Part shown: one piece after another, positions 1,641-16,411 of the stretch
Numbering within the stretch: the stretch's first letter is position 1
How the letters are laid out: the number at the start of each line of letters is the position of its first letter
Virus record (IMG/VR): IMGVR_UViG_2718218133_000003
Direction: 5' to 3' (one strand)
Length of the DNA: 39,644 bases
Source of the DNA: a virus
Taxonomy: Duplodnaviria; Heunggongvirae; Uroviricota; Caudoviricetes
Notes under the pieces: generated by a model
What the model saw: only the letters and a program-made list of their open reading frames with translations
Databases searched by the model: none
What the model was told of the DNA's origin: nothing
Position numbers and translations under genes: made by a program

Positions 1641-4148
1641 TTAAGAATCAGCCTGACTCGGGATCAGTTTTTGCCAGATAACTGAAACGTATTTTGCCTG
1701 GTAACGGGCGTCATCAAGTGCATTATGGCGCTCACCTTCGAATGGAATAGCCGTTCTGGCATCGAAGTCTATGGCTTTCCCCAGCTCAACGATTGTGCGT
1801 ACATCGCGATCGTTGTAGTAACGCCACGGGCAGGGGATCCCCTGCCGTTCGTATGAACGGCGCAAAATCGTGTTGTCGAAGTTGGCTCCATTTCCCCAGA
1901 CCTGAACAAAAAATTCACCGGAGTTTTCGTCGATAAATTCCCGCAATTGTAACAGTGCATCATCTAACGGGATTTCATCGGTCATAATGGCAGATTGCGC
2001 TTCGCGTGATTGCTTAAGCCACCATTTAATGGTGTCCCGATCAATGACTCCGCCAGCAGTTTCCAGATCGATAGTCTTACTAAATTCCGGTCCCATATCT
2101 CCGGTTTGCGGATCGAAAAATATTGCACCTATTGAGATGATCGGGGCATCAGGATTTTTTCCCATGGTTTCAAGGTCGATCATTAGATGGTCACACGTCC
2201 TGCTGGTGGATGTGATTTCTTGATGACCGTTCACCTTAATTGAGTGATCTGCCGTCTCGCCAGTTTCATTATCGCTATCGTGATGCTGATTGCCGACAGT
2301 GTTCTCCTTGTGTGGATGTTCAGCGCCTTCCATTTCCTCCGGATCATCTTCCTGAACTTCAACCTGATACTCTTCATCGAATGTTTCCTGGTATGTTGCG
2401 TCGCCCATTACCGCGCCACAATCAGGGCAGTTGCCGCCGCCGGTCTGACCGCAGGCGGTGCAGACTTTTTCCACTTCCTGTTGCGCCACTGATTCAGGCT
2501 GTTTCGTTTCTGGCTCGTTTTGTAACGCATTTGGGCTGTTTTGTTCCGCTTTTTGGTAGTTCCGTTCCGATTCATGCTGGTTCTGGTTCACAGAATCGCG
2601 GGTCTGGATCCCCTTAACCCATTTCGGATCATTCGGGTCACTAATCCCTTCAACAAATTCACCACGTGATGCAGCAAGCAACTTATCGGCGTCAGGCTGG
2701 ATGATATTGGCTGCCTGCATAATTTTGTTTACTTCGTCAGCGGTAACTTTTATCGGCTCTGGTTGTTCTGAATCTTCAGCGGTATCTACATTTTGCGGTA
2801 AGCCCGTGTATGTGCCATTTTTTCGGGCAAAATATTCTTCTTTTGTGATTTCAGTGGCGCCAGCAGCCAGTGCCTTATCCAGACCAGAAAGTTTGTTTGC
2901 GCGACCGTATTTTTCTCCGTCCTTATCTGCGAAGAGGAAATAGAACGGCCCCTCACGCTCTACAGATGGTTCAGCTTCCGGCGCGGTTTCATTTTTTGGG
3001 ATATCAGATACCTCAGTTTCCACTGCATCAGTTTGTGTTTCTGATGACTGGAGAACATCAACAGTGCCCAGGTCTGTTTCTTCATTCTCAAACACGCCCT
3101 TTGTCGTCAGGTATTCGCAGATATATTTGTTCAGTGCTACGGGATCTTTGTGAATGTCGATCGGACGCTCACGGACAAGGCCAAAAATAGTTTGGCGGTC
3201 GTAGCGAAGGGCATCAGGCTGTTTGCGCATTGATGCCGAGATACGCTTCCAGTCTTCGCGGTCGTTGTCGATAACTTCATTTTTTGCCCAGCGATGGATG
3301 CTGCCGTCAATGTTTCCGGCATCCACATCACCAGGCCAGAGAGCGTAGGCCAGTTCGTCATCCAGTGTTTTCCATGTCTGCTTGTATTCGCGATGAATGG
3401 CAGCAATGACCGGGCTGATTTTTCCTGTTGAATTTTCAGTGTACTGTTGATTGGCTCTGGCGCGGGCGAGATCAACAACAGACGTGTATTTTCCGGTTTC
3501 CTTGCGTTCACCTTCGCGACGTTTTTTCCAGATGCGCATCTCTGCCTGAATTTCGGGCCATTTAGCACCAGGAATACATTTATGCTTAACCCACCCAATG
3601 GCGTGCAACTTAAGCTCCGGATACATGGCGTTAACTTCTGGCATTTTCATCAACGCTTCAACGATATGTCCGTCGAATGTTGCCATGTCTTCCTGCAACA
3701 ATTCCTGTGCGCTAATAACCATATCAACGGTGATGTTTTCACATGTGTCGAACTTAACCATGACAGCGTTCTGTACTTCAGGGGCCAGCTTGTCAAAAGT
3801 GACGTTCATCGGATCGGATTCAGTCTCAACCGGGACAAAAGAAGCAGACTCCTCATCCCAGCGGTTTTCCTGCATATATTCAGCATCCCATGAATCGAGG
3901 GCAGGGCGGGGTATGCCAGGTTTATCCTCGCAGACAATAAATTTATAAGCGCAGTCCTGAGCAGCCGGATAATGTTCCAGGAATTGCCAGTGAAATTTTG
4001 CTCGAGCACGGCGTTCGTCGCCAGCTTCAATGGCTGTGGCTACAGCCACAGCGCCTTCTTCCCTTGTTGCCAGTTCGTCAGGAATAGCGGCGCAAATAAA
4101 GACTTTACTCATTTGTTTTAACCTCATGACAGATTTAAGGATGAACAA
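1641..4148 (-). CDS. Large phage exonuclease with C-terminal DnaQ-like DEDDh 3'-5' exonuclease domain (full-length form of the ydfE-type gene)
   Basis: 835-aa ORF; C-terminus shows Exo I (LMIDLETMG), Exo II (VWGNGANFDNTIL) and Exo III (HNALDDARYQAKY) motifs; sits in the exo position between xis and the kil-like genes. Confidence 0.8.
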   Translation of the reverse strand: MFILKSVMRLKQMSKVFICAAIPDELATREEGAVAVATAIEAGDERRARAKFHWQFLEHYPAAQDCAYKFIVCEDKPGIPRPALDSWDAEYMQENRWDEESASFVPVETESDPMNVTFDKLAPEVQNAVMVKFDTCENITVDMVISAQELLQEDMATFDGHIVEALMKMPEVNAMYPELKLHAIGWVKHKCIPGAKWPEIQAEMRIWKKRREGERKETGKYTSVVDLARARANQQYTENSTGKISPVIAAIHREYKQTWKTLDDELAYALWPGDVDAGNIDGSIHRWAKNEVIDNDREDWKRISASMRKQPDALRYDRQTIFGLVRERPIDIHKDPVALNKYICEYLTTKGVFENEETDLGTVDVLQSSETQTDAVETEVSDIPKNETAPEAEPSVEREGPFYFLFADKDGEKYGRANKLSGLDKALAAGATEITKEEYFARKNGTYTGLPQNVDTAEDSEQPEPIKVTADEVNKIMQAANIIQPDADKLLAASRGEFVEGISDPNDPKWVKGIQTRDSVNQNQHESERNYQKAEQNSPNALQNEPETKQPESVAQQEVEKVCTACGQTGGGNCPDCGAVMGDATYQETFDEEYQVEVQEDDPEEMEGAEHPHKENTVGNQHHDSDNETGETADHSIKVNGHQEITSTSRTCDHLMIDLETMGKNPDAPIISIGAIFFDPQTGDMGPEFSKTIDLETAGGVIDRDTIKWWLKQSREAQSAIMTDEIPLDDALLQLREFIDENSGEFFVQVWGNGANFDNTILRRSYERQGIPCPWRYYNDRDVRTIVELGKAIDFDARTAIPFEGERHNALDDARYQAKYVSVIWQKLIPSQADS

Positions 4149-4204: not shown

Positions 4205-4396
4205 TTAAAGACCTGCCGGGATTTCGATATTATCCTGGTGAATAACTTTATCGACCGGGTAACAGTTACCGGGAATTTTCTGTTCGGTTGCTGCAGTCAT
4301 ACACTCCTGCATTGTCCTGTGAACACTGACTGCAATATCAACTGGCTCTCCGGAAACAAGAAAAACTGTCAGAACAAGCACAAATGCTGAATTCAT
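4205..4396 (-). CDS. ydfD: YdfD-like small lysis/membrane protein
   Basis: 63-aa product MNSAFVLVLTVFLVSG... with N-terminal hydrophobic segment; ATGA overlap with dicB stop; recognised from memory as Qin YdfD. Confidence 0.65.
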   Translation of the reverse strand: MNSAFVLVLTVFLVSGEPVDIAVSVHRTMQECMTAATEQKIPGNCYPVDKVIHQDNIEIPAGL

Positions 4397-4581
4397 TGTG
4401 CACATCCTTTTGGCATCAGACGTAAACGAGCCAGCATTGAAACAATGCATATTTTATTTAATAGCTCCCGTTCTTGTTTTCTCTTGTTAATGGCATCTTC
4501 AGTAAATACTGGGTTACTGATAGTGACACCAATTTCAAAACAACCTTCAGACGTATTAACGTTTGGTAATAACGTTTTCAT
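4393..4581 (-). CDS. dicB: Cell division inhibitor DicB
   Basis: 62-aa product MKTLLPNVNTSEGCFEIGVTISNPVF... recognised from memory as DicB; directly downstream of dicF as in Qin. Confidence 0.8.
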   Translation of the reverse strand: MKTLLPNVNTSEGCFEIGVTISNPVFTEDAINKRKQERELLNKICIVSMLARLRLMPKGCAQ

Positions 4582-4750: not shown

Positions 4751-4808
4751 AAAAAGGGCGGCAGAGCAGTCACGGAGTAAAACTGATACCGCCAAACGTC
4801 ACCAGAAA
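4751..4808 (-). ncRNA. dicF: DicF small RNA (ftsZ-targeting) with intrinsic terminator
   Basis: Reverse complement reads UUUCUGGUGACGUUUGGCGGUAUCAGUUUUACUCCGUGACUGCUCUGCCGCCC followed by a U-tract; recognised from memory as DicF. Confidence 0.8.
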
Positions 4809-5067
4809 ATTGATAACAGAGGGCGTTGCAGCGGGGTTGTCACTTAAGCGTATGGTCAACCTGACAACCCGGTGTCCTCAACGGGGAAGGAATAACCCCG
4901 CCATACTTACCGCCGCGCCATTTTGCGGGTTGCCACAACCGGAAGCGCACGGTCGAATTAAATTTAACGACACCGTACAGTGAGACGAACTTCGCCGTGC
5001 GCTTTCGTGTTGTGTGCCTGCTTTTAACCACGTCAGGCGAGGTGGTATCCTTAAAATCACCACAGTT

Positions 5068-5643
5068 TTAAGGATTCATTAAGCAATGTCGCAACCACCA
5101 ATAAATCCGCTTAAGAACATGAAAATTGATTACTGGTATAAAGCGCTTACAGTTGTTGGCGCTGCGTTGTTTGTCTTTAATGGAACGTCTTTTTTTGACA
5201 GATATCCCGTTGTTCCATTGGGTTTTTTGTCCTCCGGCATCTTTTTTATTGGTTTGGGGGAGTGGATTAATCACCCTCTCAAAGTGAGATTTATTGGCCC
5301 TGGAGTTTGGACTCGTGGATATAATCGTTCTTCGTGCGCACTCGGTATCATCTTCGACATACTTGGTTGTTTCCTGATTGTTACAGGAGTCGTCAAGTTC
5401 TTCTGATGTAAAACCGCAAATGGGGCACGTAACGGGAATTTTGAAAAGCGTTTCTCCGGGTTCCAGAACAAAATTTTCTGCGGTCTGATTTTGCTTCTCA
5501 TATTTGTGCTCCGCGTCATTGTGAGAGCACATTCTTATTCTGAGTGCCTGTTTAAACTCACTGAAGCTGAGAGCTTCTTCGCCTTCGGCAAGGCCTTCGA
5601 AGTATTCTTCGTAAGCCTTTTCCATGATTGTGTCGAAATCCAT
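5068..5643 (-). CDS. Hypothetical protein; acidic N-terminal ~80 aa with CPICGF..C motif, low-complexity tail
   Basis: ATG at 5643 preceded by AGGTGAG Shine-Dalgarno; no in-frame stop until 5068; the 3' half overlaps the opposite-strand membrane ORF so the true extent is uncertain. Confidence 0.35.
   Translation of the reverse strand: MDFDTIMEKAYEEYFEGLAEGEEALSFSEFKQALRIRMCSHNDAEHKYEKQNQTAENFVLEPGETLFKIPVTCPICGFTSEELDDSCNNQETTKYVEDDTECARRTIISTSPNSRANKSHFERVINPLPQTNKKDAGGQKTQWNNGISVKKRRSIKDKQRSANNCKRFIPVINFHVLKRIYWWLRHCLMNP
5086..5406 (+). CDS. Hypothetical small membrane protein (three predicted hydrophobic segments)
   Basis: 106-aa ORF with AAGGA upstream; hydrophobic stretches ALTVVGAALFVF, GFLSSGIFFIGLGEWI, ALGIIFDILGCFLIVTGVV; antisense to the 5068..5643 ORF. 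Confidence 0.4.
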   Translation: MSQPPINPLKNMKIDYWYKALTVVGAALFVFNGTSFFDRYPVVPLGFLSSGIFFIGLGEWINHPLKVRFIGPGVWTRGYNRSSCALGIIFDILGCFLIVTGVVKFF

Positions 5644-5980
5644 ATCACTCACCTGAGTTTCTTTCCAGCCAGCGACGGGCACCATTTTCGGTTTTAAACG
5701 TTTTGCTTTTGGTATACGTCATCGCGGTGAACGTACCGTCCTGGTTGGGGAACACGCCACATACCGGAGATTCGCTGTTGCCAAGATCGATAGTATCCAT
5801 GCTGACCTCATTTCCCCTTAACGCCGGGGTAGCGGAACAAAAACCTGCTGCATAGTTATTAAAGTTGAACCCTGCCGTCATGTTCTTACGCCTCGGGCTG
5901 GCTACTTAACCCCTGACCACTGCCTGGTAACTCGAAGTATTGCCCTGCATTCTGTGGGGCGGGGTGGGTGGCAGGCATAT

Positions 5981-6097: not shown

Positions 6098-6517
6098 TTA
6101 AGAGGCTTTTTGTTTTTTCTTTCGTGCTAACTCTTCGTAAATTGCATTGTACTTCTGTTTTTTCTCTTCAAGAGTTTTTAAAAGTTCATCTGTCTCACTG
6201 TCAGGGAGCTCGTCCAGAAGGTCAATGATGATTTTTTGTCTTGGATTTAACTCCTGATAGAAACGTACCTGTCCACTTTCTTCTGTATCCTCTCCCAAAA
6301 GATAGGTTGGTGTTGTTCCTATTAGTGTTGCTAATTCCCTTAATTTCTCCCGGCGAGGAATTGTTTCGCCATTAAACCATTTGCTAACCGCTTTTGGTGT
6401 TAATTTCATTCGACGGGCAATTTCTGCCTGCCTTCCATGTTGTTCATAACCAGCGTTTTCACAGGCTAGCGCAAGCCTACTGGCGAACTCTTTACGCGCT
6501 TTATCTTCATGAACCAT
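6098..6517 (-). CDS. Prophage repressor, HTH XRE family (cI/DicA position), no LexA-like S24 domain
   Basis: 139-aa ORF with helix-turn-helix (QAEIARRMKLTPKAVSKWFNGETIP); divergent from Cro-like gene; apparently leaderless start (no Shine-Dalgarno). Confidence 0.8.
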   Translation of the reverse strand: MVHEDKARKEFASRLALACENAGYEQHGRQAEIARRMKLTPKAVSKWFNGETIPRREKLRELATLIGTTPTYLLGEDTEESGQVRFYQELNPRQKIIIDLLDELPDSETDELLKTLEEKKQKYNAIYEELARKKKQKAS

Positions 6518-11490: not shown

Positions 11491-12105
11491 TGTTTTTCCC
11501 TTAGTCGAATTGTATAAAAATACTAACATGGCCTGCTCCACGTTGACTACTATCCCCTCCTTTGAGTAATGCCTTCATCAGATGTAACAACATTTGCGAG
11601 CTTCCACAGTTCGCTCAAAGCGGACTAGAAGGTTAGCTTGCGTCGGACTTGGCGTATTTAAAGAAGTGCTGGTGGAGACTGGTTGTTGTGTTCCATTTCT
11701 ACAGAACAAAATCACAGAAACTATACCCAATAGTTATATTGAATCAATGATGAGACAGCCTCATATTTATCAGGACTGGTGTACGTCCAATACAGGAGGT
11801 TGTCGTGCTGGTTCTCAAATGTGCGCTAGCTATTGCGGCTGTAATGGCAATTTATTGTCTTGCTGTTGTTCTTACGGATCGCCTTTCTGATTGATTTTAT
11901 ATTGGCGAGGTGACGTGAGTTAAGTAGAATTGCTGCGGGTGCTTGAGGCTATCTGCCTCAGGCATGAACACCAAAGGCAGATAGAGAAAAGCCCCAGTTA
12001 ACATTACGCGTCCTGCAAGACGCTTAACATTAATCTGAGGCCAATTTCATGCTAGACACATGTAGGTTAGCCTCTTACGTGCCGAAAGGCAAGGAGAAGC
12101 AGGCT

Positions 12106-12261
12106 ATGAAGCAGCAAAAGGCGATGTTAATCGCCCTGATCGTCATCTGTTTAACCGTCATAGTGACGGCACTGGTAACGAGGAAAGACCTCTGCGAGGT
12201 ACGAATCCGAACCGGCCAGACGGAGGTCGCTGTCTTCACAGCTTACGAACCTGAGGAGTAA
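12106..12261 (+). CDS. hokD: Hok/Gef family type I toxin (HokD/RelF-like)
   Basis: 51-aa product MKQQKAMLIALIVICLTVIVTALVTRKDLCEVRIRTGQTEVAVFTAYEPEE; in-frame upstream extension to 12049 gives a 70-aa mok-like frame. Confidence 0.9.
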   Translation: MKQQKAMLIALIVICLTVIVTALVTRKDLCEVRIRTGQTEVAVFTAYEPEE

Positions 12262-15397: not shown

Positions 15398-15473
15398 GGC
15401 CCTTTAGCTCAGTGGTGAGAGCGAGCGACTCATAATCGCCAGGTCGCTGGTTCAAATCCAGTACAGCGCGCCA
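15398..15473 (+). tRNA. tRNA-like sequence (ileX/ileZ-like, anticodon CAU) with non-complementary acceptor stem; probable pseudo-tRNA
   Basis: D-arm GCTC-AGTGGTGA-GAGC, anticodon loop CTCATAA, T-arm GCTGG-TTCAAAT-CCAG and 3' CCA are present, but 5' GGCCCTT cannot pair with 3' ACAGCGC. Confidence 0.5.
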
Positions 15474-15937: not shown

Positions 15938-16411
15938 ATACATATCTGGATTATCACCTGTTACGGTAAAAAGTTATTGCTTACTGTTTTTGTGAATGGC
16001 ATTGCAGCAGCCGGATAATGTCAGTGCTGGCTGACGGTGTGCTGGTGGCGGGTGTGGTGGTTATTGCTTTCCCGTTGCTGAAAAAGAAAACGCCAGACTG
16101 TTAGCCGGGTATCAGTTAGCGGGAGAAATTTTTAAATACTTCACAATTCAGGCGGTTGACTGTTGTCTGGTTTGCGGGGAGTTTGTTAAAAGAAACTGGC
16201 ATGGTGAATCCCCCTGTGCGGAGGGGCAATCAGCGAGTAGGTATATGGGATAATCGCGGATTCAGGTGCTGGTACTGAATTCACCGGGAGGCACCCGGCA
16301 CCATGCACTTCAATAGATTCTCTCCACATTATGGATATTCTTTCAGAATATCCCACGCAGACTTTGTGTAAATGTTAACAAATGTGCGTTTTATTTGATC
16401 TGATTCGCTGT

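Follow-up and report, generated by a model that had tools for sequence, protein, structure and literature searches.

A 520-bp cassette in the early-left operon of a Qin/Rac-like prophage encodes a conserved membrane protein opposite a minus-strand frame that appears to be kept open

Within the 39,644-nt tailed-phage record IMGVR_UViG_2718218133_000003 (the window, meaning the whole stretch of DNA analysed), which by its sequence is a Qin/Rac-like lambdoid prophage of Escherichia coli, two long open reading frames (ORFs) overlap on opposite strands in the early-left operon. We found that the shorter of the two, on the plus strand, is a real protein gene under selection, and that the minus-strand frame opposite it appears to be kept free of stop codons by selection without conservation of its amino acids. 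The reading we favour, at a probability of about 0.55, is that a 520-bp module sits in the early-left operon and that both of its overlapping frames are used, for different reasons. The ORFs and their parts are as follows.

5086..5406, plus strand: ORF for a membrane protein of 106 amino acids (aa), from the ORF list
5068..5643/5685, minus strand: ORF of 205 aa from ATG 5685 or 191 aa from ATG 5643, from the ORF list
5546..5643, minus strand: ydfB-derived 5' part of the minus ORF, 33 codons (96.6% identity to K-12 ydfB; phrog_2061 at residues 1-34)
5407..5532, minus strand: conserved coding core of the cassette, codons ~38-79 (wobble variation across lineages)
5068..5406, minus strand: read-through tail, 112 aa and stop, codon-aligned antisense to the plus gene (minus-frame dN/dS >1 in close pairs)
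5026..5545, no strand: the 520-bp cassette (BLASTN against K-12)

The original prediction had described this overlap, and it is as drawn there: the plus ORF lies wholly within the 3' part of the minus ORF (5068..5685 at its longest), with 321 nt shared. Positions 5068 and 5086 both leave a remainder of 1 on division by 3; the two ORFs therefore share their triplets and the minus ORF occupies the codon-aligned antisense frame, plus codon position 1 being minus position 3 and plus position 3 being minus position 1. The minus ORF ends 16 nt past the plus start codon, and its stop codon (5068-5070, TTA on the plus strand) abuts a Shine-Dalgarno-like AAGGA at 5070..5074. Mean hydropathy was +0.64 for the plus product and -1.09 for the minus tail, in which lysine, arginine and asparagine make up 29% of the residues; the hydrophobic plus product and the K/R/N-rich tail had both been predicted.

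Evidence for the plus gene came from its relatives and from its pattern of substitution. Sixty homologues of the protein were found, mostly full length (100-111 aa) and 34-58% identical, from sources such as Yersinia, Herminiimonas, Reinekea and metagenomes, and 29 loci with homologues were spread over Actinomycetes, Desulfobacterota, Nitrospirales, Campylobacterota, Betaproteobacteria and many Proteobacteria. A profile search with the family reached 488 clusters at E<=1e-3, with a score of 3.6e-35 for P0001, an E. coli protein that shares 99% of its residues with the window's plus product. Membership of the family was defined by full-length similarity (~100-115 aa) together with the invariant residues of two motifs, DYWYKA and G-x-G-E-W-x-N-H-P (alignment A1, 32 sequences), and the window's protein carries these as Y16, W17, Y18, K19 and A20 and as G58, E59, W60, N62, H63 and P64. 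The family has no name, no model in Pfam, PHROGs or NCBIfam matching it, and the window's plus product was likewise without a family match in Pfam, NCBIfam, PHROGs and PADLOC. Among six enterobacterial versions, the ratio of nonsynonymous to synonymous substitution (dN/dS) in the plus frame was 0.07-0.22, and substitutions concentrated at plus position 3, as in the 38/22/54 differences by codon position between the window and locus L113 (loci of the comparison carry L numbers). The AlphaFold2 (AF2) model of the protein (mean predicted local distance difference test score, pLDDT, 85.5) contains helices at 17-32, 42-62 and 85-105 and a beta hairpin at 65-79, and on this model the product is a three-helix inner-membrane protein whose second helix is followed by a conserved loop. 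The Arcobacter sp. chromosome NZ_CP182343 has three copies of the family gene (L015, L016, L017); since their match statistics are identical (38% identity and E=8e-16 for each), they may be carried on a repeated mobile element.

The minus frame behaved differently over the overlap. Its dN/dS was 1.3-2.6 in close pairs and 0.53-0.77 in saturated distant pairs, still 3-4 times the plus value, and the proportion of synonymous differences (pS) of the plus gene over the overlap was ~0.7, near saturation and not depressed; the amino-acid sequence of the tail therefore imposes no detectable constraint. The original prediction had expected only one of the two ORFs to be real over the shared stretch. 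For protein-level selection this stands, and the plus ORF is the one; for the minus ORF it does not, since that ORF comprises ydfB codons 1-33 and a coding core and avoids stops within the overlap. Of two checks that the prediction had proposed, codon-usage log-likelihood placed both frames (plus -0.04, minus +0.06) below the window's real genes (0.25 +/- 0.09), and homology searching favoured one side, the plus product alone having homologues beyond enterobacterial prophages while the minus ORF stays within them.

In sequence the minus ORF reads as a chimera of 33 ydfB codons, a coding core and the read-through tail. Its start had been correctly predicted: ATG 5643 stands behind the Shine-Dalgarno sequence AGGTGAG and overlaps the ydfA stop codon (TGATATG), giving 191 aa, and translation in the window probably begins here. 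The ORF has codons 1-33 of ydfB and not the full-length YdfB of 42 aa, and the NCBI Prokaryotic Genome Annotation Pipeline (PGAP) marks 5542-5643 as a ydfB pseudogene 'missing C-terminus'. The junction between ydfB and the core is in frame (111 nt). The core ends in F-K-I-P-V-T-C-P-I-C-G-F-T (5445..5407), and the motif F-x-I-P-x-x-C-P-[IV]-C-G-F was kept in the window, L120, L121, L122, L113, L117 and L147. Codons of the core wobble between lineages (ATT/ATC/ATA, CCC/CCA/CCG/CCT, TGC/TGT, GGT/GGA, TTT/TTC), summed differences by minus codon position were 39/39/85 (1/1/10 between the window and L147), and the ratio of nonsynonymous to synonymous differences (pN/pS) was 0.33 in the minus frame vs 0.91 and 1.37 in the other two frames. 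The core at 5532..5407, outside the overlap, is thus truly coding. Its native start is probably ATG 5532, in the context ATAAGA-ATG, which L113 has as ATAAGAG-ATG; in L117 the core has a start of its own (GAGGA-N9-ATG), and in L120 and L121 it stands directly after the ydfA ribosome-binding site and ATG.

The minus product had no match in Pfam, NCBIfam, PHROGs or PADLOC other than phrog_35040, which is the minus ORF itself, and phrog_2061. In public databases it is a 'hypothetical protein' in a cluster of 1798 members, and homologues of the 117-aa Edwardsiella-type minus protein were found in its own cluster only. A zinc-ribbon or rubredoxin-like fold was considered for the CPICGF core, on the criterion of two CxxC-type knuckles with four conserved metal ligands, and rejected: one CPxC only is conserved in the core, its other Cys and His residues vary between lineages, the Pfam rubredoxin-like match (E=0.13) was below cut-off, and true zinc-ribbon proteins with the same knuckle (L134, L222, L137) carry a second pair. 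We also rejected the idea that the conserved block past the plus stop is a small plus-strand ORF or a hairpin; L113 lacks the ATG, the block is not self-complementary, and its variation fits minus coding. The only terminator-like plus-strand hairpin downstream of the membrane gene lies inside the ydfB part (5583-5602) and is no more than chance would give. In L120 (1890-2705) the minus ORF, of 271 aa, has its start at the ribosome-binding site and ATG of ydfA, spans the membrane gene and goes on in frame into ydfC, and a PaaA2/ParE toxin-antitoxin pair lies directly upstream.

The evidence that the minus frame is maintained lies in three codons, TTA, CTA and TCA, which in the plus gene are minus-strand stops. 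As a single case the open frame of the window is not clearly more than chance, with P ~0.03 for a stop-free antisense frame of this protein under an independent-codon model. Significance comes only from comparison: several lineages, between which synonymous sites are saturated, have the frame free of stops. None of the three codons was present in the plus gene of the window, L121, L113 (protein 58% identical, GC 0.41), L117 (51% identical, GC 0.40), Pantoea L007 or phage mEp390. Stop-type codons thus made up 0/89 of the Leu and Ser (TCN) codons in these six lineages vs ~35% in other homologues (108/312 in 14 of them, GC 0.28-0.51). When pooled, 0/62 Leu/Ser codons were stop-type vs 46/215 A-ending codons for Val, Pro, Thr, Ala, Gly, Ile and Arg (p=3e-6), and matched controls agreed for leucine (NTA in 0/68 vs 15/119 for Ile/Val, p=0.0012) and serine (TCA in 0/21 vs NCA in 33/115 for Pro/Thr/Ala, p=0.002), p-values from Fisher tests that overstate significance, the lineages sharing ancestry. 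The rare codons ATA, AGA and GGA were used freely in the read-through lineages, and the avoidance is therefore not general codon optimisation. Nor does ascertainment explain the pattern, because L113, L117, L007 and mEp390 were found through the plus protein and not through the minus ORF. In every read-through lineage the minus ORF ends 16-39 nt after clearing the plus start codon, and in a second clade, mEp390 and L007, a different N-terminal part is followed by the same read-through. Judged by the evolutionary maintenance of both partners, the pair thus shows plus dN/dS of 0.07-0.22 and 0/89 stop-type codons against the minus frame. It appears that translation of one strand has been a constraint on the synonymous sites of the gene on the other. 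Stop avoidance of this kind, without amino-acid conservation, is relevant to the old dispute between those who see long antisense ORFs of bacteria as genes and those who see them as shadows.

Stop-free codon-aligned antisense frames (134-182 codons, 0 stop-type among 11-26 Leu/Ser codons) were also observed at the non-enterobacterial loci L004, L013, L023, L024 and L029. Most of these have a higher GC content, so their open frames are less surprising; L013 (GC 0.46) may be another genuine read-through case.

Where the plus gene and its relatives stand bears on what the protein might do. In L113-L116 the homologue lies between early-left genes and a CI-type repressor (helix-turn-helix, HTH, and S24 peptidase), opposed to both, and in Yersinia, L121 and L122 it adjoins a DicA/RacR-type repressor; repressors of one or the other type adjoin it throughout L113-L119, L121 and L122. 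In the Edwardsiella-type prophage L147 its neighbours include genes for AbiH and DUF2971. In K-12 Rac the order is ydaF (DUF1391)-sieB (plus)-kilS-kilR, with sieB in the slot and orientation of the plus gene. By analogy, the plus gene is most likely an accessory ('moron') gene that the prophage expresses in the lysogen for a membrane function, our first guess at its role being superinfection exclusion or abortive infection. That guess is the best one because the position resembles that of sieB, a resemblance that is positional only.

Several elements lie upstream of the plus gene.

5024..5051, plus strand: putative sigma-70 promoter of the plus gene (conserved block)
5070..5074, plus strand: Shine-Dalgarno-like AAGGA, 11 nt upstream of the plus ATG (from the sequence)
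5016..5038, no strand: inverted repeat GCCTG (5016-5020) / CAGGC (5034-5038) flanking the putative -35 (from the sequence)

The block at 5024..5051, which may act as the promoter of the plus gene, consists of a -35 TTAACC (5024-5029), a 16-nt spacer and an extended -10 TGgTATCCT (TG at 5043-5044, hexamer at 5046-5051). It was the most conserved non-coding stretch among lineages whose plus proteins are 51-58% identical, with the invariant pattern TTTA.CCAC..CA.GC...GTG.TATC. AAGGA or AAAGA was present at the matching place in L117 and L113. The inverted repeat was kept in L113, L117, L121 and L122 and not in L147, and may serve as an operator or, in the RNA of the operon, fold into a hairpin.

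The favoured reading can be set out as a sequence of events. A 520-bp module would have recombined into the ydfA-dicF-dicB early-left operon of a Qin/Rac-like prophage, bringing a plus gene that faces the other way from the operon and that in the lysogen would have a promoter of its own to transcribe it. On derepression the operon transcript would cross the plus gene in antisense and would have to reach dicF and dicB. Ribosomes starting at ydfB, or at 5532, would translate on through the plus gene, and in the version we prefer they would escort RNA polymerase across it, so that Rho-dependent polarity or RNase attack would be avoided and dicF, dicB and the distal early genes would still be expressed. 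Translation of the minus strand may also help to silence the plus gene on induction. Across the overlap, and only there, C exceeds G in the minus RNA, with a C/G ratio of up to 1.6, the composition that Rho prefers. Selection on the act of translation is favoured because openness alone is conserved and not sequence, and because the second clade reads through with a different N-terminus. That this 'ribosome escort' is why the minus ORF is kept, and that it is a recurrent rule for antisense-embedded morons, is a tentative proposal that we think could well be wrong. Under such a rule, an embedded, lysogen-expressed member of the plus family would lose TTA, CTA and TCA, and the upstream operon ORF would be translated through it; the embedding is on the PL side in the window, L113 and L117 and on the PR side in mEp390. 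If true, escort would be a form of synonymous-site selection in one gene serving translation of the opposite strand.

A number of observations weigh against the favoured reading or parts of it. In the long ORFs of the window itself, 19% of stretches of 107 codons were open in the codon-aligned antisense frame, and the shared ancestry behind the Fisher tests has been noted. Among ~60 alleles on viral contigs, the minus tail was truncated by point mutation with the plus gene intact in the L112-type, L163 and L101, and L122 has a stop inside the minus motif; the tail is therefore dispensable at least transiently. The reverse was also seen, the plus gene being truncated with the minus frame intact in L165, and several frameshifts hit both, so that in these prophages, which are often cryptic, each of the two frames is lost now and then. 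The sieB gene of Rac, in the same slot, has 7, 9 and 19 stops in its antisense frames, and read-through is therefore no general requirement for crossing an antisense moron. The rut-like (Rho-utilization) composition of the minus RNA is moderate only. A consensus promoter scan called no promoter for the plus gene, the conserved block falling below threshold at 8/12. No family, defence-system or fold match backed an exclusion function, Foldseek searches of the plus model against PDB and BFVD giving no match at E<=1e-3.

The figure of 19% and the truncated alleles would be expected if the plus gene alone were real and the minus ORF were a ydfB remnant open by chance, which needs only the absence of TTA, CTA and TCA. 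This is in effect the view of PGAP, which calls a ydfB pseudogene and nothing else on the minus strand, and it agrees with a minus-frame dN/dS above 1 in close pairs and with L147, where the minus gene ends two codons past the motif (...CPICGFTSE*), 8/17 Leu/Ser codons of the plus gene are stop-type and the antisense frame holds those 8 stops. We nevertheless hold it unlikely. Chance would have to leave six diverged, synonymously saturated lineages with no stops against a family baseline of 35%, while ATA, AGA and GGA are used freely; the minus segment directly outside the overlap is clearly coding, and the core has its own start and ribosome-binding site in L120, L121, L113 and L117. The opposite possibility, that the full-length minus protein, basic hydrophilic tail included, is functional, would fit the maintained frame and the conserved N-terminal motif, and the younger frame of overlapping pairs is often fast-evolving. 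The minus protein might then act on the plus protein, or serve the early operon in exclusion or regulation as with gene 10 of Pseudomonas phage Fc02, a phage in which exclusion activity was seen for the two antisense partners alike (PMC9936078). We give such dual coding rather poor odds, given the tail dN/dS above 1 with an undepressed plus pS, the L147 homologue that stops right after the motif, and the mEp390/L007 clade, whose different N-terminus with the same read-through points to translation itself rather than to a shared protein. The annotations of phages HannyBb (CDS0038) and mEp390 (gp39) take the minus ORF for the real gene and the plus ORF for spurious, and phrog_35040 exists. This view is scarcely credible and already contradicted by the plus family itself, whose members in Actinomycetes, Desulfobacterota, Betaproteobacteria and other groups have as many as 17 stops in the antisense frame, by a substitution pattern that fits plus coding and by the confident structure model of the plus protein. 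The reading that both frames are used, the plus frame under protein-level selection and the minus frame held open, is the one that we retain.

Arrangements of this sort are already on record, both as accessory genes that face against a phage early operon (sieB) and as overlapping genes on opposite strands (Fc02). The plus gene resembles sieB of Rac, lambda and P22 as a small membrane-protein gene opposed to the early-left operon and near the immunity region, the layout that we observed in comparison with Rac and L113-L122. Rac sieB directly follows ydaF and precedes the sRNA (small RNA)/division-inhibitor pair kilS/kilR, and the matching slot of the plus gene is between ydfA/ydfB' and dicF/dicB. 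In P22, regulation of sieB involves antisense transcription, the sas RNA (PMC12197685). The likeness does not extend to the protein: BLASTP gave no alignment of the plus protein to Rac SieB at E<=100, the SieB Pfam model gave no match at E<=1, and SieB has 162 aa vs 106 aa, nor does Rac sieB have an open antisense frame. A parallel for the overlap is the olg1/gene 10 pair of Fc02, antisense overlapping genes in the lysis-lysogeny region that are both translated, one transcribed with the repressor in the lysogen and overlapped by an early lytic-operon gene on the other strand, with exclusion activity shown for both products (PMC9936078). The pair described here would share the opposition of a lysogen gene and an early-operon gene, as judged from sequence, but Fc02 is a Mu/B3-like phage, to which a sequence relationship was neither sought nor seen, and the operon-strand tail here is without protein-level constraint.

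Embedded antisense overlapping genes have reportedly also been described in E. coli O157:H7, such as ano and three others (OLGs). Like these and like 'shadow ORFs', the minus ORF is a long ORF wholly antisense to a conserved gene in a stop-poor frame; here, however, the embedded conserved gene is the shorter one, and the evidence is evolutionary (stop avoidance, a coding 5' core) rather than from ribosome profiling (Ribo-seq). With YdfB and YdfC of the Qin dicBF operon the minus ORF shares its first 33 codons, the operon and the neighbours, but the C-terminus of ydfB and the whole of ydfC are replaced by the cassette and the rest of the minus ORF is unrelated. A type I toxin-antitoxin system of the hok/sok kind, defined as a small membrane toxin (<60 aa) with a short cis-antisense sRNA from its own promoter, was considered for the pair and rejected, the plus product having 106 aa, the antisense partner being operon mRNA with an ORF, and no Rfam antitoxin RNA being present at the locus. 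What we regard as new is the identification of the plus family, the corrected annotation and the comparative evidence for synonymous sites that keep the opposite strand translatable. The plus protein defines an unnamed family of ~500 clusters, recurrent beside prophage repressors and abortive-infection genes, and is a reasonable candidate for a new prophage exclusion or defence function.

The surroundings of the cassette were identified as follows, and they bear out the predicted location upstream of dicF in the ydfABC region.

5645..5800, minus strand: ydfA (DUF1391), first gene of the early-left (dicBF) operon (Pfam PF07151, E=6.7e-26; PGAP)
4756..4807, minus strand: DicF sRNA, 3' of the cassette on the same transcript (Rfam RF00039, 76.7 bits)
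4393..4581, minus strand: dicB, cell-division inhibitor gene (Pfam PF05358, E=9.6e-40; PGAP)
6098..6517, minus strand: DicA/RacR-type HTH repressor gene of the immunity region (PGAP 'helix-turn-helix domain-containing protein'; ORF list)

Pfam and PGAP also identified ydfD in the window. The dicBF operon is transcribed as a polycistronic RNA that is processed and reaches dicF and dicB (PMC5069750). BLASTN against K-12 aligned window 5838-5546 to ydfA and ydfB codons 1-33 (96.6% identity) and window 5025-4300 to the K-12 sequence from 120 bp past ydfC through dicF and dicB (97% identity), with no match between the two alignments, at 5026..5545. The cassette, which has no counterpart in K-12 Qin, thus substitutes there for the last ydfB codons, the whole of ydfC and the 120 bp that follow it. 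Of 5426 complete genomes of E. coli, 791 (~15%) contained 80% or more of 4900..5900.

Annotation of this common E. coli locus has been inconsistent. PGAP calls neither long ORF in E. coli genomes and marks ydfB as a pseudogene, the annotation of phage HannyBb calls the minus ORF, and databases hold both products as hypothetical proteins. Our analysis settles the matter in that the conserved gene is the plus-strand membrane protein. In mEp390 (L239, NC_019721), gp39 (2956-3411) lies on the strand of the PR operon between the cro-like gp38 and the cII-like gp40, and opposite it, in the codon-aligned antisense frame, stands a homologue of the conserved membrane protein (2995-3315); of the two frames, the one chosen in the published annotation is thus probably the less conserved.

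Two copies of a segment encoding ...DIVESQPWVNASRSE.SIDDIGVP.P.GWDLIKI.VICPICGFTSE* were observed in L147 (3036-3389 and 5166-5396), each convergent with a different small membrane gene, one for a 109-aa family member and the other for a 156-aa phrog_6315 protein. The two CPICGF segments have an AbiH gene between them and a DUF2971 gene nearby. From this arrangement, opposed accessory genes seem to be joined repeatedly at the end that encodes CPICGF. Beside the distant plus homologues no convergent conserved CPxCGF gene was found, a CPSCG gene in Desulfobulbaceae being unrelated. Elsewhere in the window, Rfam matches above the gathering score were a sok antitoxin RNA at 11937-12111 (plus strand, 119.9 bits), a STnc100 sRNA at 16170-16360 (plus strand, 114 bits) and a tRNA at 15399-15470 (plus strand).

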